A stretch of 48,811 nt of DNA from a virus (Duplodnaviria > Heunggongvirae > Uroviricota > Caudoviricetes), in IMG/VR virus record IMGVR_UViG_2706794677_000013; one strand, written 5' to 3'. Position 1 is the first letter of the stretch. Each line of letters opens with the position of its first letter. Of the stretch, positions 10,225-44,344 are shown in pieces. The notes beneath the pieces were generated by a model that saw nothing but the letters and a program-made list of their open reading frames with translations, was not told where the DNA came from and ran no database searches. The position numbers were made by a program, and so were the translations under genes.

Positions 10225-10474
10225 NNNNNNNNNNNNNNNNNNNNNNNNNNNNNNNNNNNNNNNNNNNNNNNNNNNNNNNNNNNNNNNNNNNNNNNNNNNN
10301 NNNNNNNNNNNNNNNNNNNNNNNNNNNNNNNNNNNNNNNNNNNNNNNNNNNNNNNNNNNNNNNNNNNNNNNNNNNNNNNNNNNNNNNNNNNNNNNNNNNN
10401 NNNNNNNNNNNNNNNNNNNNNNNNNNNNNNNNNNNNNNNNNNNNNNNNNNNNNNNNNNNNNNNNNNNNNNNNNN
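10225..10474. other. Run of 250 N
   Basis: Literal n characters. Confidence 1.
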
Positions 10475-11325: not shown

Positions 11326-11575
11326 NNNNNNNNNNNNNNNNNNNNNNNNNNNNNNNNNNNNNNNNNNNNNNNNNNNNNNNNNNNNNNNNNNNNNNNNNNN
11401 NNNNNNNNNNNNNNNNNNNNNNNNNNNNNNNNNNNNNNNNNNNNNNNNNNNNNNNNNNNNNNNNNNNNNNNNNNNNNNNNNNNNNNNNNNNNNNNNNNNN
11501 NNNNNNNNNNNNNNNNNNNNNNNNNNNNNNNNNNNNNNNNNNNNNNNNNNNNNNNNNNNNNNNNNNNNNNNNNNN
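11326..11575. other. Run of 250 N
   Basis: Literal n characters. Confidence 1.
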
Positions 11576-12575: not shown

Positions 12576-13262
12576 ATGACCCCAATAAACATATTTATGA
12601 CAGTTGCTGATTTCAAACGGCCCAAATTGGAGCTCCCAAACGGGGCAAACAAACTACTACTGCACTCTTGCTGTGCTCCATGTTCCGGTGAGGTGATGGA
12701 GGCGCTTCAGGCCTCGGGAATCGACTACACCATCTTTTTCTACAACCCGAACATTCATCCTCAGAAAGAGTATTTAATTCGTAAGGATGAGAATATTCGC
12801 TTTGCTGAACAACACGGCGTGCCGTTTATTGATGCTGATTACGACACAGACAACTGGTTTGAACGAGCCAAAGGAATGGAATGGGAGCCCGAACGAGGGA
12901 TCCGTTGCACCATGTGTTTTGACATGCGTTTTGAGCGGACAGCGCTGTACGCCGCTGAAAATGGTTTCAGTGTGATCAGCAGTTCACTGGGCATTTCACG
13001 CTGGAAAAATATGCAGCAGGTTAACGACTGTGGGCGGCGAGCCGTCGCGCATTATCCGGGCATGGTGTACTGGGATTATAACTGGCGCAAGCAGGGCGGC
13101 TCGTCCCGTATGATTGAAATCAGCAAGCGCGAAAAATTCTATCAGCAGGAATATTGTGGCTGTGTGTATTCTCTGCGCGATACCAATCTACACCGCAAAT
13201 CTCAGGGACGCCCTCTTATCAAAATTGGTCAACTCCACTACGGTAAAGAAGAGAAGGAGTGA
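12576..13262 (+). CDS. queH: QueH-like protein (DUF208, epoxyqueuosine reductase family), 228 aa
   Basis: N-terminal [10 protein letters not shown] motif plus later CTMC and EYCGC motifs, which I recognise as the QueH/DUF208 signature. Confidence 0.6.
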
Positions 13263-14469: not shown

Positions 14470-14719
14470 NNNNNNNNNNNNNNNNNNNNNNNNNNNNNNN
14501 NNNNNNNNNNNNNNNNNNNNNNNNNNNNNNNNNNNNNNNNNNNNNNNNNNNNNNNNNNNNNNNNNNNNNNNNNNNNNNNNNNNNNNNNNNNNNNNNNNNN
14601 NNNNNNNNNNNNNNNNNNNNNNNNNNNNNNNNNNNNNNNNNNNNNNNNNNNNNNNNNNNNNNNNNNNNNNNNNNNNNNNNNNNNNNNNNNNNNNNNNNNN
14701 NNNNNNNNNNNNNNNNNNN
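14470..14719. other. Run of 250 N
   Basis: Literal n characters. Confidence 1.
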
Positions 14720-16137: not shown

Positions 16138-16275
16138 ACGTTACTAGATCAAAGAGCATTAGTTCATATGTAAATTGACATTTTTCTGGCACAGGGGAGA
16201 GCTAGCGTGGTTGTCCGCTTTGTGCCAATAGCGGACATTGCTGGCTCATGGTATGTTAGTTTAAGGAGGCAGGTT

Positions 16276-17298
16276 ATGCCCTGTATTTCGCTGTGGTATA
16301 ATAGTTGCGCAATTGATACAAGGGAGCGTTACATCGTGAAAATTGTTTTCGAGGTTAATGGAAAGAAAGTTCCACTAAAATCTTTAAAATACATAAGCAA
16401 AAAAGATCAACTCGAAGTAATGAAAAACTGGTTCTTTGAAAACTTTGAAGATCCGGCAAATGCTTGTCCGTATGAAAGTAGAGAAGGTGGCTATGCTTAC
16501 ATATATGGCGGGCCGTATGATGCGAGCGAAGAACTACAATCCATCTTCGGTCAATATGTTAAATCTGAGTATATTGAGGAATTAGTAGATGAATTACAAA
16601 CACAATGTTTTGACTGGTCTGGAAACTCAAATAATATAGATGATTGGTACGATGATGATATCTACGACGCTGTAACGTCTTCCGGTAATCCGTATTTAAA
16701 ATTCATTGATAATATCGATAAAATAAAAAAACTTGCAAAAGATAAAACTGAACAACAGCAAAAAAACCACTTGCTTAGTTTGCTCTACACGAATGTTATT
16801 ACAGCTTTGGAAACGCTTTATGTTGAGCTATTCATTAATTCTATAGAGAAAGATGATGTCTACATAGCCAATTGTATAGAAAAAGGTAAGACTGAATTTA
16901 AAGTAAGCAAAGATATTGCTGCGTTGCCTTTCAAGGGTGAACCCATCGAGAAAATTAGGGGAGAGCTAATCAGGTCAATCAAGGAACACTTGATCAGTGC
17001 AAGCTGGCATAGCACTAAAAAGGTAATCGACCGCTATGAAGCTACATTCGATATAAAAGTACAAAAAGACTGTCCGATAGAAGCTATTGAATTGGCAACC
17101 CTCAATCGAAATCACTTAGTGCATCGTGGTGGAAAGGATAAAGAAGGGAACCTCGTAGTGATTACAGACCAGGATCTTGAAACGCTGATTGAAAATGCAT
17201 CGAACCTGGCAATTATGCTCTACAACAGTTTAAATGTAGCAACGAATAAAACCACCATTTTGCAACCAGATGACAAACCGTTCATTCATGAATTTTAA
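16276..17298 (+). CDS. Unknown protein A of an AT-rich two-gene cassette, 340 aa; possible HEPN-like R-x4-H motif (RNHLVH) near the C-terminus
   Basis: Long ORF; ATG at 16276 preceded by a strong RBS (ttaaggagg); markedly AT-rich codon usage compared with flanking phage genes. Confidence 0.65.
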   Translation: MPCISLWYNSCAIDTRERYIVKIVFEVNGKKVPLKSLKYISKKDQLEVMKNWFFENFEDPANACPYESREGGYAYIYGGPYDASEELQSIFGQYVKSEYIEELVDELQTQCFDWSGNSNNIDDWYDDDIYDAVTSSGNPYLKFIDNIDKIKKLAKDKTEQQQKNHLLSLLYTNVITALETLYVELFINSIEKDDVYIANCIEKGKTEFKVSKDIAALPFKGEPIEKIRGELIRSIKEHLISASWHSTKKVIDRYEATFDIKVQKDCPIEAIELATLNRNHLVHRGGKDKEGNLVVITDQDLETLIENASNLAIMLYNSLNVATNKTTILQPDDKPFIHEF

Positions 17299-17313: not shown

Positions 17314-18315
17314 ATGGATATTCGCACACGAAAGACAAAATTTTTAGAGTCGTTAGATTCAACTGAAGTGATACGCAAAGCAGTAAGTCTCGCTATAGAT
17401 TGCATTATTGATAATCATAATAGTAATGAAGATACCCCCTTAGTTATTACCAGCTATGATGATCTCTGTAGAATCCAGGTGCTAAATTATGTACAGGAGT
17501 TTTGCGAAGCTGCATTCCCTGATATGGATGAATATTACTTTAGTCCTAACATACTTCGCATCAACGGCAAGACTAGTGAAGAAGCTTGTATTAACTTAAT
17601 TAAACTCTTAAGAAGTACAAAAGGCATGCTATTCTGGTCCGATGCCCCATCGTGGTTCGCTAGCCTCCCCGACGGATTATTCCATGTTGTTAACATTGAT
17701 CAAAAAATCGTTACTCGCGGCCTTAATAAGAAAAACTCTAAGCCGACAATAATCAATAAAGATTACAGTGTAGATACACTACTATCAGAGCTATTTTTGA
17801 ATGGCGCACACATGGAGCAACCCAACGTACACAACGTTTCTGAGGGAAACATGAAGTTCTATGATGAATGCCATGCTGGATTAATCAGACCAATACCCGC
17901 TCCAATAGGCGCGTCATACGATGAAGAGATCACAATTAATTCTCCAGATTGGCAAAAGCTCGCGTGTGTAGCTTTACGCCGCTATCAGTCGAAGGAATGT
18001 CATGACGGAATGCAATGGGATACAACCGATCATGGTTGGACTGATGTAATCGCGTATCCATTCGTCGAAGAAATACAATCAATGGATAATAGTGGTTATC
18101 GACAATGTTTAGTTGGGCTGGTCACAATAAACAATTCAAATGCAAATTCTCCGTACCTATCTACCGTTTGGATACATCCATTTTATCGCAGGAGAGGGTT
18201 ATTAAGTAAGTTATGGCCAAAATTACAAGAGTTATATGGAAGTAACTTCGAAATTGAGCGACCTAATGAAAATATGAAAGCATTTCTGAAAAGTGCGAAA
18301 CACGCAGATTACTAA
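17314..18315 (+). CDS. Unknown protein B of the AT-rich cassette, 333 aa; C-terminal GNAT-acetyltransferase-like motif (VWIHPFYRRRGLLSKLWPKLQELYG)
   Basis: ORF starts 15 nt after gene A stop (operon-like); AT-rich; motif resemblance by eye only. Confidence 0.65.
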   Translation: MDIRTRKTKFLESLDSTEVIRKAVSLAIDCIIDNHNSNEDTPLVITSYDDLCRIQVLNYVQEFCEAAFPDMDEYYFSPNILRINGKTSEEACINLIKLLRSTKGMLFWSDAPSWFASLPDGLFHVVNIDQKIVTRGLNKKNSKPTIINKDYSVDTLLSELFLNGAHMEQPNVHNVSEGNMKFYDECHAGLIRPIPAPIGASYDEEITINSPDWQKLACVALRRYQSKECHDGMQWDTTDHGWTDVIAYPFVEEIQSMDNSGYRQCLVGLVTINNSNANSPYLSTVWIHPFYRRRGLLSKLWPKLQELYGSNFEIERPNENMKAFLKSAKHADY

Positions 18316-24932: not shown

Positions 24933-25199
24933 NNNNNNNNNNNNNNNNNNNNNNNNNNNNNNNNNNNNNNNNNNNNNNNNNNNNNNNNNNNNNNNNNNNN
25001 NNNNNNNNNNNNNNNNNNNNNNNNNNNNNNNNNNNNNNNNNNNNNNNNNNNNNNNNNNNNNNNNNNNNNNNNNNNNNNNNNNNNNNNNNNNNNNNNNNNN
25101 NNNNNNNNNNNNNNNNNNNNNNNNNNNNNNNNNNNNNNNNNNNNNNNNNNNNNNNNNNNNNNNNNNNNNNNNNNNNNNNNNNNNNNNNNNNNNNNNNNN
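24933..25199. other. Run of 267 N covering the Rz 3' end and the trkG 5' end
   Basis: Literal n characters. Confidence 1.
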
Positions 25200-26560
25200 T
25201 TTATAAAGAAAAAAGCCTGTTCGTTTTCTTTATAACTTTCGTTATATTTTTTTGCATTGGTGGCGGAGCGTGGTATACAACTAAGAAATCTGGCATTCAA
25301 TTACGTACCCGTGATGGGTTTATTATAATTGTAATGTTTTGGATTTTGTTTTCTGTTATTAGTGCATTCCCTTTATGGATTGACTCAGAACTTAATTTAA
25401 CGTTCATTGATGCTCTGTTTGAAGGGGTTTCTGGAATAACAACAACAGGAGCAACTGTAATTGATGATGTTAGTTCATTACCTCGGGCATATTTGTACTA
25501 TCGGTCACAGTTAAATTTTATAGGTGGTTTAGGAGTTATTGTTCTGGCGGTTGCAGTATTGCCATTATTGGGTATTGGTGGTGCAAAGCTTTATCAGTCA
25601 GAAATGCCGGGGCCATTTAAGGATGACAAACTCACTCCCCGCCTGGCCGATACGTCACGGACACTGTGGATAACTTATTCTTTATTAGGTATTGCTTGTA
25701 TTGTCTGTTATAGACTTGCAGGAATGCCTTTGTTTGATGCTATTTGTCACGGGATTTCCACAGTTTCGCTTGGTGGTTTCTCAACTCATAGCGAGAGTAT
25801 CGGATATTTTAATAACTATTTGGTTGAGCTGGTGGCTGGTTCTTTTTCCCTGCTATCGGCTTTCAACTTCACTCTTTGGTATATTGTTATTAGCAGAAAA
25901 ACGATAAAACCTTTAATCAGAGATATTGAACTTCGTTTCTTTCTGTTAATAGCCTTAGGGGTGATCATTGTTACCTCTTTCCAGGTCTGGCATATAGGTA
26001 TGTATGACTTGCATGGAAGTTTTATTCATTCGTTTTTTCTTGCCAGCTCCATGCTCACTGATAATGGTTTAGCTACGCAGGATTATGCAAACTGGCCCAC
26101 GCACACGATAGTGTTTTTGCTGTTGTCAAGTTTCTTTGGGGGATGTATAGGTTCAACCTGTGGTGGAATTAAGTCACTTCGATTTCTTATACTTTTCAAA
26201 CAAAGCAAACACGAGATAAATCAGCTTTCTCATCCCAGAGCGTTGTTGAGTGTAAATGTAGGAGGGAAGATAGTTACAGATCGTGTAATGAGGTCTGTAT
26301 GGAGTTTCTTTTTTCTTTATACTCTCTTCACGGTGTTTTTTATACTGGTGTTAAATGGTATGGGATATGATTTTCTTACATCATTTGCAACAGTGGCTGC
26401 ATGTATTAATAATATGGGATTAGGTTTTGGGGCTACTGCATCGTCATTCGGAGTGCTTAATGACATTGCAAAATATTTAATGTGCATAGCTATGATTCTT
26501 GGTCGCCTTGAAATTTATCCTGTTATTATATTGTTTTCAGGTTTTTTTTGGCGCTCCTAA
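25200..26560 (+). CDS. trkG: TrkG/TrkH-family potassium uptake membrane protein, 5' roughly 30 codons lost in N run
   Basis: Polytopic membrane protein; open frame from the gap edge; sequence recalled as Rac TrkG; AT-rich. Confidence 0.8.
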
Positions 26561-26697
26561 TATATGGCTGATTTATAATTGTGAGTTTAATATTATGTTG
26601 ACTCACTCATTGATCCAATACCTAACTTTACCAGCAACACCTCCGCCCCCAGTAGCACTGGCTGCTGGGGTGCGTTTTATTCATAAAGCAAGGCTGT

Positions 26698-27486
26698 ATG
26701 AGCGAGAAATTAAAGATAGTCTATCGCCCATTACAAGAATTGTCACCGTATGCGCACAACGCCAGGACGCACAGTACTGAGCAGGTGGCACAACTGGTAG
26801 AAAGTATTAAGCAATTCGGCTGGACTAATCCGGTGCTGATTGACGAAAAGGGCGAAATTATTGCGGGTCACGGTCGTGTTATGGCGGCTGAAATGCTCAA
26901 AATGGATTCTGTTCCGGTCATTGTTCTGTCTGGCCTGACGGATGAGCAGAAAAAGGCGTACCGCCTGGCAGATAATCGCCTGCCGATGAATGCTGGCTGG
27001 GATGAAGATCTGTTGCGGATGGAGCTGTCGGACCTAATCAATGCTGATTTTGATGTCTCCCTGACAGGCTTCATCCCGGCAGAAATTGATGAACTGTTGA
27101 CGGATGTTTTGCCCGGTACAGGAAATGAGGAGGAGCCGTATACGACGAAAATTGATACGCCTGTTTATGAGCCGTCAGGCGGTAAACCGGATATCAGTGA
27201 ACTGTACGACGATACGAAAACTCAGGAGCTGATCAGCCGGATACGTTCGGCGTCCCTTGATCCTGATATTGAGAAATTCCTCCTGTGTGCAGCAGAACGT
27301 CACACGGTGTTTAATTTCAGCAGAATTGCGGACTATTACGCTCATGCCCCCGCTGAAATTCAGTGCCTTTTCGAGGAGTCGGCGCTGGTGATCATTGATT
27401 ATCAGCAGGCTATTGAAAATGGATTTGTCCGAATGACGCAGCGCATGGTGGAGATCATGCATGGCGGGGAGGAGGAATATGCGTGA
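26698..27486 (+). CDS. ParB N-terminal-domain (ParB-like nuclease) protein, 262 aa
   Basis: ParB-like N-terminal segment (PVLIDEKGEIIAGHGRVMAA). Confidence 0.6.
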   Translation: MSEKLKIVYRPLQELSPYAHNARTHSTEQVAQLVESIKQFGWTNPVLIDEKGEIIAGHGRVMAAEMLKMDSVPVIVLSGLTDEQKKAYRLADNRLPMNAGWDEDLLRMELSDLINADFDVSLTGFIPAEIDELLTDVLPGTGNEEEPYTTKIDTPVYEPSGGKPDISELYDDTKTQELISRIRSASLDPDIEKFLLCAAERHTVFNFSRIADYYAHAPAEIQCLFEESALVIIDYQQAIENGFVRMTQRMVEIMHGGEEEYA

Positions 27487-28411
27487 TGATTTTTGCGCCT
27501 TTATTCTGACTCACGGGCGACCGGACAAAGTTCTGACTTACCGGACGTTGCGTCGTGCTGGCTATACCGGGAAAATTTTTATCGTTGTTGATGATGAAGA
27601 TAAGACACGGCATCAGTACATGGCTGAATTTGGTGAACAGGTGCTGGTATTTTCCAAAGCCGATATTGCTAGTCGTTTTGACGAAGCCGATAATTTTAGT
27701 GACCGCCGCTCAATTTTTTACGCCCGTAATGCCTGTTTCGACCAGGCAAAACTGGTCGGGTGTAAATACTTCATTCAGCTCGATGATGATTATCACGAGT
27801 TCCAGTTTCGGGTGGATCGCAACTATGACCAGGCCTATTTCCCGATAAGGAAACTGGATGAGATCCTTTCTGAAATGCTTGCGTACTACGAATCAATACC
27901 TGCTCTTTCCATCGCTATGTCGCAGGGCGGGGATTTTCTTGGTGACAATGGCGGCCATGCTTCGTGGGTGAAACGCAAGGCAATGAACAGCTTTATCTGT
28001 TCGGTTGATCGACCGTTCTCATTCATGGGGCGCATTAACGAGGATGTGAATACGTACACGAATCTCGGTCGCTGTGGTGAATTGTTTATGACGATCGGTG
28101 CTGTCCAGTTAGGGCAGAAACAGACGCAGAAAAACAGCGGCGGAATGACCGAGCTGTATCTGGATTCCGGAACCTACGTTAAAAGTTTTTACTCCGTCAT
28201 GTATGCGCCGTCGTGCGTAAAAATCTCACTTATGGGTGCCAGTCATAAACGCATTCACCATCAGGTCACCTGGAACAACGCTGCAGTAAAAATCCTTCAC
28301 GAAAAATACAGGAAGAAGACACCCTGCATATCAATGGGGGTGACAAATGATTCCGTATTCGAAAGTCGAGTCTCTGGCAGCGTGCCGGATGACTGCACAA
28401 CAAATCGCTGA
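27461..28411 (+). CDS. Hypothetical protein with GT-A glycosyltransferase-like motifs, about 310 aa (start 27461 or 27479)
   Basis: N-terminal FILTHGRPDKVLTYRTLRRAGYTGKIFIVVDDED and later QLDDDY resemble the GT-A N-terminal and DxD motifs; by-eye only. Confidence 0.45.
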   Translation: MAGRRNMRDDFCAFILTHGRPDKVLTYRTLRRAGYTGKIFIVVDDEDKTRHQYMAEFGEQVLVFSKADIASRFDEADNFSDRRSIFYARNACFDQAKLVGCKYFIQLDDDYHEFQFRVDRNYDQAYFPIRKLDEILSEMLAYYESIPALSIAMSQGGDFLGDNGGHASWVKRKAMNSFICSVDRPFSFMGRINEDVNTYTNLGRCGELFMTIGAVQLGQKQTQKNSGGMTELYLDSGTYVKSFYSVMYAPSCVKISLMGASHKRIHHQVTWNNAAVKILHEKYRKKTPCISMGVTNDSVFESRVSGSVPDDCTTNR

Positions 28412-28598
28412 CGTTCTGGATGTTGATCTGAACCGACTGAAAGAAAATCGGGAAGCAATGACAGATTTTTATGCGGCCATCCGTAAGGGCAGAGCGAAAG
28501 GTGAAGCCGAGTTACGAGCGGCATTGTTTAAGCTTGCCAGAAAAGGGGATGCCTTTGCTCTGCGCGAACTACTCAGGGTGGATAAAAATCAGGACTAA
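28347..28598 (+). CDS. Small hypothetical protein, 83 aa, upstream of the terminase small subunit
   Basis: ORF overlapping the 3' end of the previous gene; start uncertain. Confidence 0.35.
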   Translation: MIPYSKVESLAACRMTAQQIADVLDVDLNRLKENREAMTDFYAAIRKGRAKGEAELRAALFKLARKGDAFALRELLRVDKNQD

Positions 28599-28601
28599 CT
28601 G

Positions 28602-29696
28602 ATGAGCAGACCGGACTGGGGGGCGTTGCAGCAGGAGTATATTGCTGAATACACCCGCTCCGGTATATCTCCGGTGGCATGGTGTGAAGCAAGGGGACTG
28701 AATTACGCAACAGCCCGTCGTTACATCAAAAAAACTCCGAAAAATGCGCAGACAGAAATGTGCAAAACTGCGCAAAAAAGTGCGCAGAAAAAATCTGCGC
28801 AGACTGCACAAAAGCGGAACGAAAAATCTCAGGAAAAAAAGCCAGTATTCGATGCGGGCCTGAATGAGGGCGACGCGGAGGAATTTTCGTTCTGTCCCGA
28901 TGAATTCGGCATTTCTGACCAGCAGGCTAAGTTTGCGATGCTTGTTGCTCAGGGTAAAAAGCCGACAGAGGCGTACCGACTAGCCGGTTATGAGGGGCAA
29001 GGTGCGACAGCTAACAGCAACGCCAGTCGTATGCTTAGAAATGCCAGGGTTTTTCGCGCTATCAGCTACTTCCGCAATCAGTACCAGAAACGCTATACCG
29101 CAGACCTGGATTTACTAGTGAGTCAGTTGATGGCTATTGTCCTGGCCGACCCCAATCAGCTTGCACAATTTCGCCGTGTTAACTGCCGTTATTGCTGGGG
29201 CGAGAATCATCTCTACCAGTGGCGCGATATAGCAGAATTCGACAAGGCAGCGGCGCAGGCTTCCAGAGATGGCAAACCCGAACCGGAATATGGAGGCCTC
29301 GGCTTTGTTGATAACGCCATACCCAATCCGGACTGCCCGAAGTGCTGCGGTGAGGGAACGGGACAGCTTTATATGGCTGATACCACTCTGCTTGATGGGG
29401 ATGCGCGGCAATTATATGCAGGGGCAAAATTCGGAAAATTCGGCGTTGAGATCCTGCTGGAGGATAAGGCTGCCGCCCGGCGTGAATTGTTGCGTTTGTT
29501 TTCTGCTGGCGGGGCTTTATGTGCAGATAAGCGGCTACGGGAACTGGAAATTGAACGGCGCAGAATGGAAAACCAGAAGCTGCGCAAAGAGATCGAAACG
29601 GTGGAAGATAATGAACATCCCCAGCCTGTGGCGATCAATATTAATGTGGTTGATGCCAGAGTAAGGAGTGATGAAGATGATCTCTCCGACGCTTAA
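28602..29696 (+). CDS. Terminase small subunit
   Basis: N-terminal HTH-like region (ARGLNYATARRYIKK); immediately upstream of the large terminase. Confidence 0.7.
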   Translation: MSRPDWGALQQEYIAEYTRSGISPVAWCEARGLNYATARRYIKKTPKNAQTEMCKTAQKSAQKKSAQTAQKRNEKSQEKKPVFDAGLNEGDAEEFSFCPDEFGISDQQAKFAMLVAQGKKPTEAYRLAGYEGQGATANSNASRMLRNARVFRAISYFRNQYQKRYTADLDLLVSQLMAIVLADPNQLAQFRRVNCRYCWGENHLYQWRDIAEFDKAAAQASRDGKPEPEYGGLGFVDNAIPNPDCPKCCGEGTGQLYMADTTLLDGDARQLYAGAKFGKFGVEILLEDKAAARRELLRLFSAGGALCADKRLRELEIERRRMENQKLRKEIETVEDNEHPQPVAININVVDARVRSDEDDLSDA

Positions 29697-30978
29697 TGTG
29701 CCTCAGGCGCGATTTCTTTCAATGCCCCATAAATTTAAAGCCTATATTGCTGGTTTTGGCTCGGGCAAAACATGGGTTGGGTGTGGCGGCATATGCAAGG
29801 GGATTTGGGAGCATCCAGGTATAAATCAGGGATATTTTGCGCCAACGTATCCCCAAATTCGCGATATTTTTTACCCTACAGTGGAAGAAGTTGCTGCTGA
29901 CTGGGGATTGAACGTAAAAATTAATGAGGGAAATAAAGAGGTTCACTTTTATTACGGACGCCAGTATCGGGGAACCACTATCTGCAGATCGATGGAGAAG
30001 CCACAAACGATCGTCGGTTTCAAAATTGGTAATGCGTTGGTGGATGAACTGGACATTTTGCCGAAGGAAAAAGCCAGAACGGCGTGGCGCAAGATAATTG
30101 CACGTATGCGTTATAAGATTGATGGACTTCGCAACGGTATTGACGTTACAACCACGCCGGAAGGATTCAAATTTGTCTACGAGCAGTTTGTTAAAGCCGT
30201 GCGTGAAAAAACAGAGCTGGCCTCACTGTATGGTCTGGTGCAGGCATCTACTTTCGATAATGAAAAGAACCTGCCAGCAGATTACATTCCTTCGCTTCTT
30301 GAATCATACCCTCCAGAGCTGATTAAAGCCTATCTTCGAGGACAGTTTACTAACCTGACAAGTGGTACTGTTTACCATCAGTTTGACCGGAAACTGAATA
30401 ATTGCGAAGAAGTGGAGCAGCCAGGGGAGCCGATTTATATTGGGATGGATTTTAACGTTGGAAAGATGGCGGGAATCGTCCATGTGCTGCGTTTGGGGCT
30501 TCCATGTGCGGTAACTGAAATCATCAATGCCTACGATACGCCGGATATGATCCGCATCATTAAAGAACGCTTCTGGCTGTATGATGGGAATGATTACCGG
30601 AAAGTGAGGGAAATTTATATTTATCCAGATGCTTCCGGGGATTCCAGAAAATCAAGTAACGCAAGTACGACGGATATAGCCCAGCTTAAGCAGGCTGGTT
30701 TTAACGTTGTGGTGAACAGCTCGAACCCGCCAGTAAAAGATCGCGTTAACTCAATGAATGCAATGTTCTGCAATGCCAATGGTGAGCGTCGCTATAAAGT
30801 TAATGTGAAGCGTTGCCCGTTATATGCCGAATCTCTGGAGCAACAGGTCTGGGATGAGAAGGGGGAGCCTGATAAAAAATCTGGCAATGATCACCCGAAT
30901 GATGCCGGAGGTTATTTCATCGTTAAGCAATTCCCTATTGTCAAACCGACCGGAAGAGTCACATCACTTCGGATTTAA
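29668..30978 (+). CDS. Terminase large subunit
   Basis: Walker A-like GFGSGKTWVG near the N-terminus; size and position. Confidence 0.8.
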   Translation: MMKMISPTLNVPQARFLSMPHKFKAYIAGFGSGKTWVGCGGICKGIWEHPGINQGYFAPTYPQIRDIFYPTVEEVAADWGLNVKINEGNKEVHFYYGRQYRGTTICRSMEKPQTIVGFKIGNALVDELDILPKEKARTAWRKIIARMRYKIDGLRNGIDVTTTPEGFKFVYEQFVKAVREKTELASLYGLVQASTFDNEKNLPADYIPSLLESYPPELIKAYLRGQFTNLTSGTVYHQFDRKLNNCEEVEQPGEPIYIGMDFNVGKMAGIVHVLRLGLPCAVTEIINAYDTPDMIRIIKERFWLYDGNDYRKVREIYIYPDASGDSRKSSNASTTDIAQLKQAGFNVVVNSSNPPVKDRVNSMNAMFCNANGERRYKVNVKRCPLYAESLEQQVWDEKGEPDKKSGNDHPNDAGGYFIVKQFPIVKPTGRVTSLRI

Positions 30979-30980
30979 TT

Positions 30981-32387
30981 ATGGCTGATATATCAACACC
31001 CAACCTCGACTATAACGATATGCTGGAGGCGTGGGATATTAACGACGCACTGATGGGCGGTACGCTTGAAATGCGCAGGCAGGGGGAAAATTATCTCCCA
31101 AAATGGCCTAACGAAGATGAAGACGCTTATAAAAAACGCCTGTCTGTGGCTACGCTACTTCCTGTGTATGAAGAAAGCATCAAGCAAAATATTGGGCGCA
31201 TATTTGCAGAGCCGACAGTATTGAGTGAGGAAACGCCGGCAAAAATCAGGGAATATGCAGAAAATATCGACATGGAGGGGAGCCGACTGGATGTGTGGGC
31301 GCAGCAATTTTTCAGCCTCGCATTTCAGTATGGTGTGGCACATGCGCTGGTGGACTATCCACGAACGGATATGAAAGAGATTCGGACAAAAGCCGATGAA
31401 AACGCGACCGGTGGTCGTCCGTACGTTACGATGCTGAATCCACGCCAGGTTATTGGATGGAAATCGAAAGTTGAAAAAGGGAAAGTTGTTCTCACTGATT
31501 TGCGTATAAAAGAGGTCATCATTATTGATGGTGATGATTTCGGGCAGAAGAAGGTGGAGCAGATCCGCCATATTATGCCCCGTCGAGTTGAAATTTATCG
31601 ACGTAGCGAAGGCACTAATGGCGAATCTGTCTGGACGCTTCATGAGTCATGGAATACCAGCCGTGATGATATTCCTCTGGTAACACTGTACACGAAGAAA
31701 ACAGGATTTATGCGTGGTACACCGCCATTGCTTAATCTTGGCTTGCTGAATATCAAGCACTGGCAAAGCCAGAGCGAGCAGGACAATATTCTTCATGTTG
31801 CCCGCGTTCCATTGCTGGTGGCCTACGGGCTGGACAGGAATGAAGAACTGACGGTTGGTGCATCCACCGCTACGATTTTTGAGGACAGAACAAAAAATGG
31901 CCTCGAATATGTTGAACATAGTGGCGCAGCGATAGAATCTGGCGAAACATCACTTGAGAAGCTGGAAAATCAGATGCGTCATGCCGGCGCTAAACTTCTG
32001 CGTGCTGAAAATACATCCACCAAATCTGTTGATCAGACTAATGAAGAGCGAATGCAGGAAAACTCGCCGCTTTATACAATGGCGAACTCCCTCGAAGATG
32101 CCCTCGATAATATTCTCCAGATAATGGCGGAATGGATCGGAGAGAGTTGCGGTGGCAATGTGGATGTGCGCACTGAACTGGATGTATCTGCCCAGGTGTT
32201 TGACTCATCCTCCGCGCTGGCTGTTCAGTCATTGCGTCAGGGCGGTGATATACGTCAGATTGATGCGGTTCGGGTGTTGCAGGCGTTGAAATTTATCGAT
32301 CAGGATTCCCGTCCAGAGGAAGTGATCGATGAATTAAAAAATCAGAGTGTAATGCTGATGGAAATCAATGATGCAAACCGTGAATGA
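30981..32387 (+). CDS. Portal protein, 468 aa
   Basis: Size and position directly after the large terminase. Confidence 0.65.
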   Translation: MADISTPNLDYNDMLEAWDINDALMGGTLEMRRQGENYLPKWPNEDEDAYKKRLSVATLLPVYEESIKQNIGRIFAEPTVLSEETPAKIREYAENIDMEGSRLDVWAQQFFSLAFQYGVAHALVDYPRTDMKEIRTKADENATGGRPYVTMLNPRQVIGWKSKVEKGKVVLTDLRIKEVIIIDGDDFGQKKVEQIRHIMPRRVEIYRRSEGTNGESVWTLHESWNTSRDDIPLVTLYTKKTGFMRGTPPLLNLGLLNIKHWQSQSEQDNILHVARVPLLVAYGLDRNEELTVGASTATIFEDRTKNGLEYVEHSGAAIESGETSLEKLENQMRHAGAKLLRAENTSTKSVDQTNEERMQENSPLYTMANSLEDALDNILQIMAEWIGESCGGNVDVRTELDVSAQVFDSSSALAVQSLRQGGDIRQIDAVRVLQALKFIDQDSRPEEVIDELKNQSVMLMEINDANRE

Positions 32388-43601: not shown

Positions 43602-44344
43602 ATGACACAGACAGAATCAGCGATTCTGGCGCACGCCCGGCGATGTGCGCCAGCGGAGTCGTGCGGCTTCGTGGTGAGAACACCGGAGGGGGAAAGATAT
43701 TTTCCCTGCGTGAATATTTCCGGTGAGCCGGAGGAGTATTTCCGGATGGCTCCGGAGGACTGGCTGCAGGCAGAGATGCAGGGTGAGATTGTGGCGCTGG
43801 TCCACAGCCACCCCGGTGGTCTGCCCTGGCTGAGTGAGGCCGACCGGCGGCTGCAGGTGCAGAGTGATTTGTCGTGGTGGCTGGTCTGCCGCGGGGCGAT
43901 TCACAAGTTCCGCTGTGTGCCGCATCTCACCGGGCGGCGCTTTGAGCACGGGGTGACGGNNNNNNNNNNNNNNNNNNNNNNNNNNNNNNNCTGGCGGGAA
44001 TTGAGATGCCAGATTTTCATCGTGAGGACGACTGGTGGCGTAATGGTCAGAATCTCTATCTGGATAATCTGGAGGCTACAGGGCTGTATCAGGTGCCGTT
44101 GTCAACGGCGCAGCCGGGCGATGTGCTGCTGTGCTGTTTTGGTTCATCGGTGCCGAATCATGCCGCCATTTACTGTGGTGACGGCGAGCTGCTGCACCAT
44201 ATTCCTGAACAACTGAGCAAACGAGAGAGGTATACCGACAAATGGCAGCGACGCACACACTCCCTCTGGCGTCACCGGGCATGGCACGCATCTGCCTTTA
44301 CGGGGATTTGCAGCGATTTGGCCGCCGCATCGACCTTCGTGTGA
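43602..44344 (+). CDS. Tail assembly protein, lambda K-like (JAB/MPN + NlpC/P60), interrupted by a 31-N run; exact end uncertain
   Basis: HSHPGG JAB-type motif in the first half; C-terminal half with a Cys/His catalytic-like region; frame changes across the N run. Confidence 0.7.
43960..43990. other. Run of 31 N inside the K-like gene
   Basis: Literal n characters. Confidence 1.

Follow-up and report, generated by a model that had tools for sequence, protein, structure and literature searches.

The stretch of DNA analysed here, called the window throughout, is the 48,811-nucleotide IMG/VR virus record IMGVR_UViG_2706794677_000013 (Caudoviricetes), which represents a Rac-like lambdoid prophage of E. 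coli. Two overlapping genes at positions 26698-28411 were studied, one encoding a ParB-like protein, referred to below as the partner, and the other a glycosyltransferase of the TAGT (TET-Associated Glycosyltransferase) family. The features of this gene pair are listed below, with residues of the glycosyltransferase numbered from the start at 27479.

26698-27486, plus strand: partner gene, 262 aa, named 'ynaK' by the Prokaryotic Genome Annotation Pipeline (PGAP); from the open reading frame (ORF) list, Pfam, PHROG, the structure model and the fold search
26698-27102, plus strand: ParB/Srx N-terminal domain of the partner, residues 1-135; from Pfam PF02195, PHROG, PADLOC, the Noc/ParB alignment and Foldseek
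27139-27174, plus strand: linear motif YTTKIDTPVYEP (consensus Y-[ST]-x-K-x3-P-x-Y) in the predicted-disordered linker of the partner; from the alignment of homologs
27190-27462, plus strand: helical C-terminal domain of the partner, residues 165-255; from alignments and locus searches
27461-28411, plus strand: glycosyltransferase ORF in its longest form, 316 aa; from the ORF list
27479-28411, plus strand: glycosyltransferase gene from its likelier start, an ATG with a Shine-Dalgarno sequence, 310 aa; the same start is used by PGAP
27468-27472, plus strand: Shine-Dalgarno sequence GGAGG for the glycosyltransferase, within the 3' end of the partner gene
Residues 13-14 of the glycosyltransferase, plus strand: motif G13-R14, invariant in the alignment
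27590-27601, plus strand: glycosyltransferase motif DDED, part of VVDDED
27782-27793, plus strand: glycosyltransferase motif DDDY (D102-D103-D104-Y105), part of QLDDDY
28037-28048, plus strand: glycosyltransferase motif NEDV (N187-E188-D189-V190)

Both reading frames and the VVDDED and QLDDDY motifs that the initial annotation had picked out are present, and the start of the second gene was refined to 27479. The ATG at this position overlaps the TGA of the partner gene (27484-27486) by 8 nt. Since both the GGAGG and the glycosyltransferase start lie inside the end of the partner gene, translation of the glycosyltransferase is probably coupled to that of the partner.

The second protein had been proposed to be a GT-A-like glycosyltransferase from its motifs, and this assignment was borne out. 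It matches the Pfam family PF20691 (TAGT) with 118.8 bits (gathering threshold 27.5; E 4e-34) over the whole profile (positions 4-205 of 205), and the same family is carried by all 120 glycosyltransferase homologs listed. It also matches phrog_842 ('beta-glucosyl-HMC-alpha-glucosyltransferase') at E 8e-104, and its PGAP name is 'GREB1-related protein'. An alignment of 31 homologs (59-82% identity) shows G13-R14, D38/D41, D102-D103-D104-Y105 and N187-E188-D189-V190 as invariant, along with many other polar positions. It has been reported that phage GT-A DNA glycosyltransferases and the trypanosome enzyme JGT have the active-site signature R...DDD...ED(Y/F) (bioRxiv 10.1101/2023.12.21.572611); R14, D102-D103-D104 and E188-D189 match this signature, and its final position is V190, not Y/F. 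Structure models of both proteins were built on 31-sequence alignments, and the AlphaFold2 model of the glycosyltransferase is confident for residues 1-150 only (predicted local distance difference test 85-97). When this confident half was compared with the PDB by Foldseek, only GT-A/nucleoside diphosphate (NDP)-sugar enzymes were matched (ColGalT1, SpsA, SunS/ThuS, glycogenin and GnT-I), and the best matches of the model in BFVD were TAGT-domain proteins (E 3e-19). A profile search for a solved structure of the family found no match among PDB sequences. The T2/T6 enzymes were not reached from this subfamily by tblastn at E 1e-5. Judged from its sequence, the protein is clearly a full-length TAGT-family GT-A enzyme, predicted to use a nucleotide-sugar donor.

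The partner consists of an N-terminal ParB/Srx-fold domain, a disordered acidic linker and a helical C-terminal domain. The ParB N-terminal-type domain named in the initial annotation was recovered by PF02195 (ParB_N; 29.3 bits, just over the 26.3 threshold), by PHROG 620 (E 2e-90) and by a Foldseek search with the partner model, which returned Noc, ParB, PadC and sulfiredoxin (Srx) with probability 1.0. Residues ~10-144 correspond to the N-terminal module of phage ParB-DNA-methyltransferase fusions (phrog_498, E 6e-51; PADLOC MTase_II, E 1.5e-38). In the alignment to Noc/ParB, Box II reads AGHGR (G57-H58-G59-R60) where GERR is expected, with His in place of Glu, and one Box II Arg and N93 (Box III) are invariant among the partner homologs. 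These motifs make nucleoside triphosphate (NTP) binding by the ParB-type domain plausible and NTP hydrolysis doubtful. No helix-turn-helix (HTH) or dimerisation Pfam domain was found in the partner (TIGR00180 scores 38, far under its cut-off of 58), and there is no ParA gene in the PGAP annotation of the prophage. The earlier label of a 'nuclease' is a legacy name for which no support was found, the protein being acidic with a GHGR Box II and no HTH. A defence-system identity was also considered and rejected, PADLOC having no model for the glycosyltransferase and matching the partner solely through the ParB module of a Type II methyltransferase.

The rest of the partner turned out to be its conserved unit, namely a helical C-terminal domain of ~110 aa and the Y-[ST]-x-K-x3-P-x-Y motif preceding it. 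Both tyrosines and the proline of the motif are kept without exception in homologs ranging from E. coli prophages to archaea and jumbo phages, and the C-terminal domain has invariant R-H, E, D and G positions. No Pfam family was found for this domain; a weak, sub-threshold resemblance to PF23887 was repeated in three divergent sequences. A search of a large protein database with the domain gave at least 5038 matches, none of them Pfam-annotated, and stand-alone proteins of ~135 aa prevail among the best matches.

For locus searches, residues 1-135 (ParB part) and residues 145-255 (C-terminal part) of the partner were used separately. A gene for the C-terminal domain accompanies the glycosyltransferase in all 84 IMG/VR loci fetched via the glycosyltransferase, in 83 of them as the gene just upstream, its stop overlapping the glycosyltransferase start. 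The same gene stands beside an intact glycosyltransferase in 70 of 70 informative loci (one genome per species and four isolated phages). The bacterial hosts of these 70 loci include Proteobacteria, Bacteroidota, Firmicutes, Chlorobi, Desulfobacterota, Acidobacteriota, Actinobacteria, Spirochaetes and Kiritimatiellae, and the set also spans candidate-phyla-radiation metagenome-assembled genomes (MAGs) and a Methanosphaera MAG. In the reverse direction, the glycosyltransferase is immediately downstream in 79 of 79 loci fetched by the C-terminal domain alone. The pair was found in more than 12 phyla and in one archaeal virus, with stop/start overlaps of 4-40 nt, and it is kept even in a Porphyromonas phage whose glycosyltransferase has 27% identity. 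Linkage of the two genes is therefore obligate in both directions, in agreement with the earlier view that they are paired.

This linkage does not lie where the initial annotation had put it. When the tally was restricted to partners uncut by a contig end, 46 had a detectable ParB-N domain at their N-terminus, 9 had a divergent ParB-like one, and 8 were stand-alone C-terminal domains of ~135 aa, including those of Vibrio jumbo phages. The part of the partner that is linked to the glycosyltransferase is the C-terminal domain with its motif, and the ParB domain, taken at first as the paired element, is dispensable. Fusions of ParB with the glycosyltransferase were looked for as Rosetta-stone evidence, and this line was abandoned: the long representatives are glycosyltransferase-glycosyltransferase, glycosyltransferase-methyltransferase and glycosyltransferase-sulfotransferase proteins, none with ParB, and the only ParB/glycosyltransferase chimeras seen look like frameshift or contig artefacts.

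The pair occurs in two genomic contexts. Among 28 non-redundant viral loci, the partner is the sole family always found with the glycosyltransferase, no third gene family recurring with them, and at least five unrelated terminase families lie downstream. The ParB-fused pair heads the packaging module irrespective of the terminase type. For example, the order is lysis genes and then ParB-TAGT-x-TerS (small terminase subunit) in a Serratia prophage, ParB-GT-TerS-TerL-portal in phage phi jlb1 (GT, glycosyltransferase; TerL, large terminase subunit) and Orf1-Orf2-TerL in Nocardia NTR1. In Lactobacillus phage c5 the pair is ORF1-ORF2 immediately after the cos site, in the Porphyromonas phage it is immediately 5' of the terminase genes, and in the haloarchaeal virus HHTV-2 the overlapping pair is upstream of TerL with ~eight small ORFs between; a phage with a lambda-GpA-type terminase also has it. 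The stand-alone form of the partner is found inside phage replication modules, away from terminases, typically in the order DnaB, primase, PolA, HD, beta clamp, C-terminal domain, TAGT, cytidylyltransferase-like protein, dUTPase, RecA and clamp loader. The beta-clamp gene abuts the pair directly in four loci (L115, L117, L138 and L149).

Further enzymes accompany the pair in some loci. Some replication-module loci carry two TAGTs, and tandem TAGTs were seen in L133, L142, L246 and L249. A class I S-adenosylmethionine (SAM)-methyltransferase-like domain with the motifs VDxGCG ... ASEYFEHF ... IANxFN recurs in different arrangements: it is fused to the glycosyltransferase in P0248, P0252, L083 (9001-10719) and L133 (3581-5275), fused to the partner in L114 (189-1739) and free-standing in L138 (122-964), which fits a single complex. 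A sulfotransferase is fused to the glycosyltransferase in P0290, and in a Virgibacillus plasmid-prophage a sugar-1-phosphate nucleotidyltransferase and an NDP-sugar epimerase lie immediately upstream of the partner. In the metagenomic phage contigs L243-L245 and L248-L250, a small cytidylyltransferase-like gene (PF01467, 136-247 aa) follows the pair in several replication-module contexts, which suggests that the donor in these loci is an unusual CDP- or ADP-linked sugar and not the common UDP-sugar.

The prophage of the window contains recET, kilR, sieB, ydaT-V, the lysis genes essD/rrrD/rzpD and a trkG moron, followed by packaging, head and tail genes. The genes and signals around the pair are as follows.

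25334-26560, plus strand: trkG potassium-transporter moron, between the lysis cassette and the pair with the late packaging genes
26647-26680, plus strand: terminator-like hairpin CCCCAG...CTGGGG with a T-run, closing the trkG moron just 5' of the pair
28389-28598, plus strand: small ORF overlapping the 3' end of the glycosyltransferase gene (69 aa from the PGAP start; 83 aa from 28347), with a partial phrog_309 match
28602-29696, plus strand: TerS, packaging gene
29668-30978, plus strand: TerL, packaging gene
30981-32387, plus strand: portal, packaging gene

The reading frames from 26698 through the portal overlap or abut and the packaging genes are gapless, so the pair belongs to the late/packaging operon. 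The initial annotation had placed the pair between lysis and packaging genes; the packaging genes do come next, and on the lysis side the trkG moron intervenes. The GC content of the trkG region is ~0.38-0.40 versus ~0.48-0.50 in the flanking phage genes. No convincing promoter was seen in the sequence inspected between the trkG hairpin and the ParB-like gene. The small ORF at 28347-28598 matches only the middle (positions 145-218) of the TerS family phrog_309, and an ORF of this kind recurs directly after the glycosyltransferase and before the annotated TerS in 8 of the 28 non-redundant loci; it probably belongs with the packaging genes and not with the glycosyltransferase system. The window contains six runs of N of 31-267 bases (1656-1911, 10225-10474, 11326-11575, 14470-14719, 24933-25199 and 43960-43990), which touch neither gene of the pair; one of them, 24933-25199, separates the Rz-like lysis gene from trkG.

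When a 2051-bp segment around the pair (window 26600-28650) was used as the query, 867 of 5426 complete E. coli genomes and 10 phage records were found to contain at least 80% of it. In the Rac prophage of K-12 MG1655, what is left of ynaK encodes 87 aa and is followed by remains of tail genes, with no glycosyltransferase, terminase or head gene; the initial annotation was right that this position in K-12 Rac holds only remnants. The related prophage L001 of strain EC2 (NZ_CP058571.1, 20099-20887) has an intact 262-aa partner ORF identical to window 26698-27486. Its whole pair is identical to that of the window, and the two prophages differ in the early region. PGAP marks the EC2 ynaK as a pseudogene 'missing C-terminus' (258 bp) despite the intact ORF, and this call looks like an annotation artefact, perhaps arising from a truncated K-12 YnaK model.

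Two other observations concern the early part of the window. At 12576-13262 (plus strand), the early/replication region holds a gene for a full-length QueH (epoxyqueuosine reductase, PF02677, E 2e-65); E. coli's own epoxyqueuosine reductase is QueG. The idea that QueH is a functional partner of the pair (queuosine glycosylation) was dropped because the EC2 prophage carries the identical pair without QueH, which was also unseen in the related neighbourhoods examined. Two adjacent ORFs of ~350 aa each at 16207-17298 and 17314-18315 (plus strand) are matched only weakly, by a HEPN/RES N-terminal domain (E 2e-4) and a GNAT acetyltransferase (E 9e-4), and not at all by PADLOC; they may be an accessory or defence-type gene pair.

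The explanation that we favour, with about even confidence, is that the two genes constitute a late-expressed two-component phage glycosylation system acting most likely on phage DNA. The TAGT-family enzyme would be the catalytic subunit using a nucleotide-sugar donor, and the C-terminal domain of the partner with the tyrosine-rich linker motif would bind, activate or complete it; a functional interaction between the two is suggested by the complete bidirectional linkage together with the translational coupling. The ParB/Srx domain may serve as an accessory NTP-binding and DNA-associating module which directs the enzyme to phage DNA around packaging. In lytic phages with their own replisome the ParB domain is absent, and the position of the stand-alone pair beside the beta-clamp gene suggests that it would be coupled to the replisome instead. 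The substrate would be the phage genome, to which sugar is added post-replicatively as a protection against host restriction or other defences that target DNA. The terminase-adjacent and replication-module contexts were counted as support for action on DNA, and the glycan-building and sugar-tailoring enzymes among the neighbours and fusions as support for a glycosylation module. Furthermore, characterised phage TAGTs act on DNA (PMC13216743), a subclass of phage thymine dioxygenases needs HTH-less ParB-fold proteins to act on double-stranded DNA (PMC13229309), and ParB modules are found fused to DNA methyltransferases (PMC12704722).

Several points weigh against phage DNA as the target. All characterised DNA-directed relatives need a hydroxyl acceptor, either 5-hydroxymethylcytosine (5hmC), 5-hydroxymethyluracil (5hmU) or a sugar on them (bioRxiv 10.1101/2023.12.21.572611; PMC13216743), which is supplied by a 5mYOX/TET-JBP enzyme or a thymidylate-synthase-type hydroxymethylase. 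No enzyme of this kind, nor any other source of such an acceptor, turned up among the Pfam-scanned ORFs of the window, the genes that PGAP annotated in the EC2 prophage, the precomputed Pfam neighbourhoods of related pairs, the recurrent neighbour families of the 28 non-redundant loci or the genes abutting the pair. Altogether, no linked hydroxylase was detected in the window or in ~200 related loci; the span covered was +/-7-8 kb around the pair for the replication-module relatives, and in the complete genomes of ~31-38 kb that carry the pair, no hydroxylase is present in the annotated regions around it. A Pfam census of 145 of the 246 neighbour clusters gave phage housekeeping families, two C5-methylases and one epimerase (25 of the 90 matched families listed), which is a weak negative for TET_JBP, rare singletons being possible. 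The glycosyltransferase is only near-neutral in charge, the partner is strongly acidic (pI 4.5) with no recognisable DNA-binding domain, and the C-terminal halves of both structure models are of low confidence. A literature search on DNA modification in HHTV-2, the Lactobacillus phages or any other phage carrying the pair found nothing. It has also been reported that the TAGT fold can glycosylate a protein, as in GREB1 (PMC7968844). The earlier suggestion of a DNA modification or anti-restriction module is thus strengthened by the genomic context and weakened by the missing hydroxymethyl-acceptor enzyme, and it is still something that we infer.

A further possibility, which we regard as rather unlikely, is that the module glycosylates canonical, unhydroxylated DNA directly, for example through an N- or O-linkage to a standard base, or at DNA ends. 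This would be a novel type of DNA modification, carried out by a GT-A enzyme. Recognition of the acceptor would then come from the ~110-aa partner domain, tethered through the ParB module in temperate phages or through the replisome clamp in lytic ones. Alternatively, a conventional hydroxymethylpyrimidine may be the acceptor after all, the 5hmC, 5hmU or glucosyl-5hmC being made by an enzyme encoded elsewhere, in an unlinked phage gene, the host or a co-infecting T-even-type phage, so that the glycosyltransferase would be an ordinary TAGT lacking its local partners. Such acceptors are the rule for the characterised DNA TAGTs, the limited span read around the replication-module pairs and the two C5-cytosine methylases among the neighbours of relatives count on the side of this explanation, and 5mYOX neighbourhoods often hold glycosyltransferases, ParBs and terminases (PMC13229309). 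However, the negative searches above tell against it, from the window and the EC2 prophage to the annotated flanks in the ~31-38 kb genomes; so do the lack of a third family recurring with the pair and the distance of this subfamily from the T2/T6 enzymes. To our knowledge, E. coli makes no hydroxymethylpyrimidines either. We consider this explanation quite improbable.

The main rival is glycosylation of a protein, which we likewise regard as rather unlikely. The enzyme would modify its own partner at the invariant Tyr/Thr of the YTxKxxxPxY motif, or a terminase or virion protein, in a glycogenin-like or toxin-like manner, and the functional product would be a glycoprotein and not DNA. In favour of this are the two invariant tyrosines of a linear motif in a predicted-disordered linker and the 100% linkage of enzyme and partner in both directions, and the missing base-hydroxylating enzyme would pose no problem. 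The TAGT-domain protein GREB1 O-GlcNAcylates a protein (PMC7968844), and the fold matches include the protein- or peptide-directed GT-A enzymes ColGalT1, SunS/ThuS and glycogenin. However, the N-terminal domain of the partner is a ParB module of the DNA-methyltransferase type, the stand-alone form occurs within replisome gene clusters beside the beta clamp, and the phage TAGTs characterised so far act on DNA; protein glycosylation fits the replisome and methyltransferase-module contexts less well, and the motif could equally serve as a docking peptide. A glycosyltransferase of the TarP/Gtr type, altering surface glycans against other phages by lysogenic conversion with the ParB-like gene as an unrelated neighbour, is very improbable. 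The prophage teichoic-acid glycosyltransferase TarP is among the PDB neighbours of phage GT-A DNA glycosyltransferases (bioRxiv 10.1101/2023.12.21.572611), and the prophage does hold other morons such as trkG. However, no hydrophobic segment was found in either protein by a Kyte-Doolittle scan (maximum 19-residue means 1.08 and 1.25), the genes overlap within a late operon and do not form a moron with its own signals, their pairing is obligate, and the viruses that carry them infect Gram-negative, Gram-positive, candidate-phyla-radiation and archaeal hosts whose envelopes are unrelated. Least probable of all, with hardly any chance in our judgement, is that the partner is a partition protein or a packaging nuclease working with the terminase and is only incidentally associated with the glycosyltransferase. 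The legacy names 'ParB-like nuclease' and 'partitioning protein' and the terminase-adjacent position would favour this, whereas there is no ParA, parS or HTH, Box II is degenerate (GHGR), the stand-alone forms are not near terminases, and the link of the C-terminal domain to the glycosyltransferase remains in the many partners without a ParB domain.

The favoured explanation, a two-component system most likely acting on phage DNA, can be compared with several known systems. The founding TAGT, the T2/T6 beta-glucosyl-HMC-alpha-glucosyltransferase, shares PF20691, the GT-A fold, DxD-type motifs and a phage origin with the enzyme of the window. However, the acceptor of the T-even enzyme is alpha-glucosyl-5hmC, which receives a second glucose, and the reaction requires a dCMP hydroxymethylase/alpha-glucosyltransferase pathway, none of which was found here; the literature examined (PMC13216743) describes no partner protein for the T-even enzyme. 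The phage GT-A glycosyltransferases associated with 5mYOX (TET/JBP), together with trypanosome JGT, share the R...DDD...ED signature and differ at its last residue (Y/F there, V here). Their post-replicative clusters often contain extra glycosyltransferases, epimerases, ParB-like proteins and terminases, as around this pair, but they adjoin a C5-methyltransferase/5mYOX or a thymidylate-synthase homolog, for which no linked counterpart is seen in the ~200 loci. GREB1, the source of the PGAP name, shares the TAGT domain and is a large eukaryotic protein that O-GlcNAcylates estrogen receptor alpha, without a ParB-like partner.

The architecture of the partner resembles that of ParB176, which works with 5mYOX176 (PMC13229309): both have a nucleotide-binding domain, a linker and a C-terminal domain, lack an HTH and are encoded beside a client DNA-modifying enzyme, and they have common PDB neighbours (MxParB 7bnk/7bnr, Noc 7nfu, PadC 6ryk and pNOB8 5k5d). 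The client is a dioxygenase for ParB176 and a glycosyltransferase here, with no 5mYOX beside the partner in any locus examined, and the likeness is one of architecture, the indispensable part here being the C-terminal domain while the ParB domain can be missing. The phage fusions of ParB with N6/N4 DNA methyltransferases (phrog_498; MTase_II) have the same N-terminal module of ~140 residues and a similar near-packaging position; their catalytic part is fused, whereas here a separate, translationally coupled glycosyltransferase would be reached through an adaptor domain. For the replication-module form, a parallel is offered by the T4 alpha-glucosyltransferase, a DNA glycosyltransferase that co-purifies with the gp45 clamp (PMC13216743), just as the stand-alone C-terminal domain/TAGT pairs adjoin beta-clamp genes. 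The T4 enzyme, a GT-B-fold protein, makes direct contact with the clamp, whereas for the pair clamp coupling is suggested by gene order alone.

The assignment of the enzyme to the TAGT family is already known from Pfam and PGAP. The 2013 work of Iyer et al. reportedly defined TAGT and is said to discuss ParB in such operons, and it may mention ParB-TAGT neighbourhoods. Outside that work, no description was found in the searchable literature of the obligate partner domain and its linkage, rather than that of ParB, to the glycosyltransferase, or of the split into packaging- and replication-linked forms with a consistent absence of hydroxylase. ParB-like genes and terminases have already been noted, in aggregate, as frequent neighbours in GT-A contigs, and ~65% of mined phage glycosyltransferase contigs are reported to lack any base-modification partner (bioRxiv 10.1101/2023.12.21.572611). 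The 'solitary' TAGT, of which 288 of 753 glycosyltransferase-encoding phages have one, has been regarded as an open problem (PMC13216743).

In one large TAGT subfamily, then, the enzyme is never alone: a small unannotated domain accompanies it in every case, often as part of a ParB fusion, and no hydroxylase is detectable. The pair is a minimal two-gene system native to E. coli and offers a concrete handle on the solitary-TAGT problem. Should the module act on DNA, its acceptor chemistry has to be unlike that of every known phage DNA glycosylation; should it not, there is a limit on inferring DNA hypermodification from a TAGT annotation. ParB-fold proteins have newly been recognised as cofactors of DNA-modifying dioxygenases, and a role in DNA glycosylation would add glycosyltransferases to the enzymes that they serve. 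Were canonical DNA glycosylated directly, a widespread phage DNA modification would have been overlooked in the prophages of ~16% of complete E. coli genomes.

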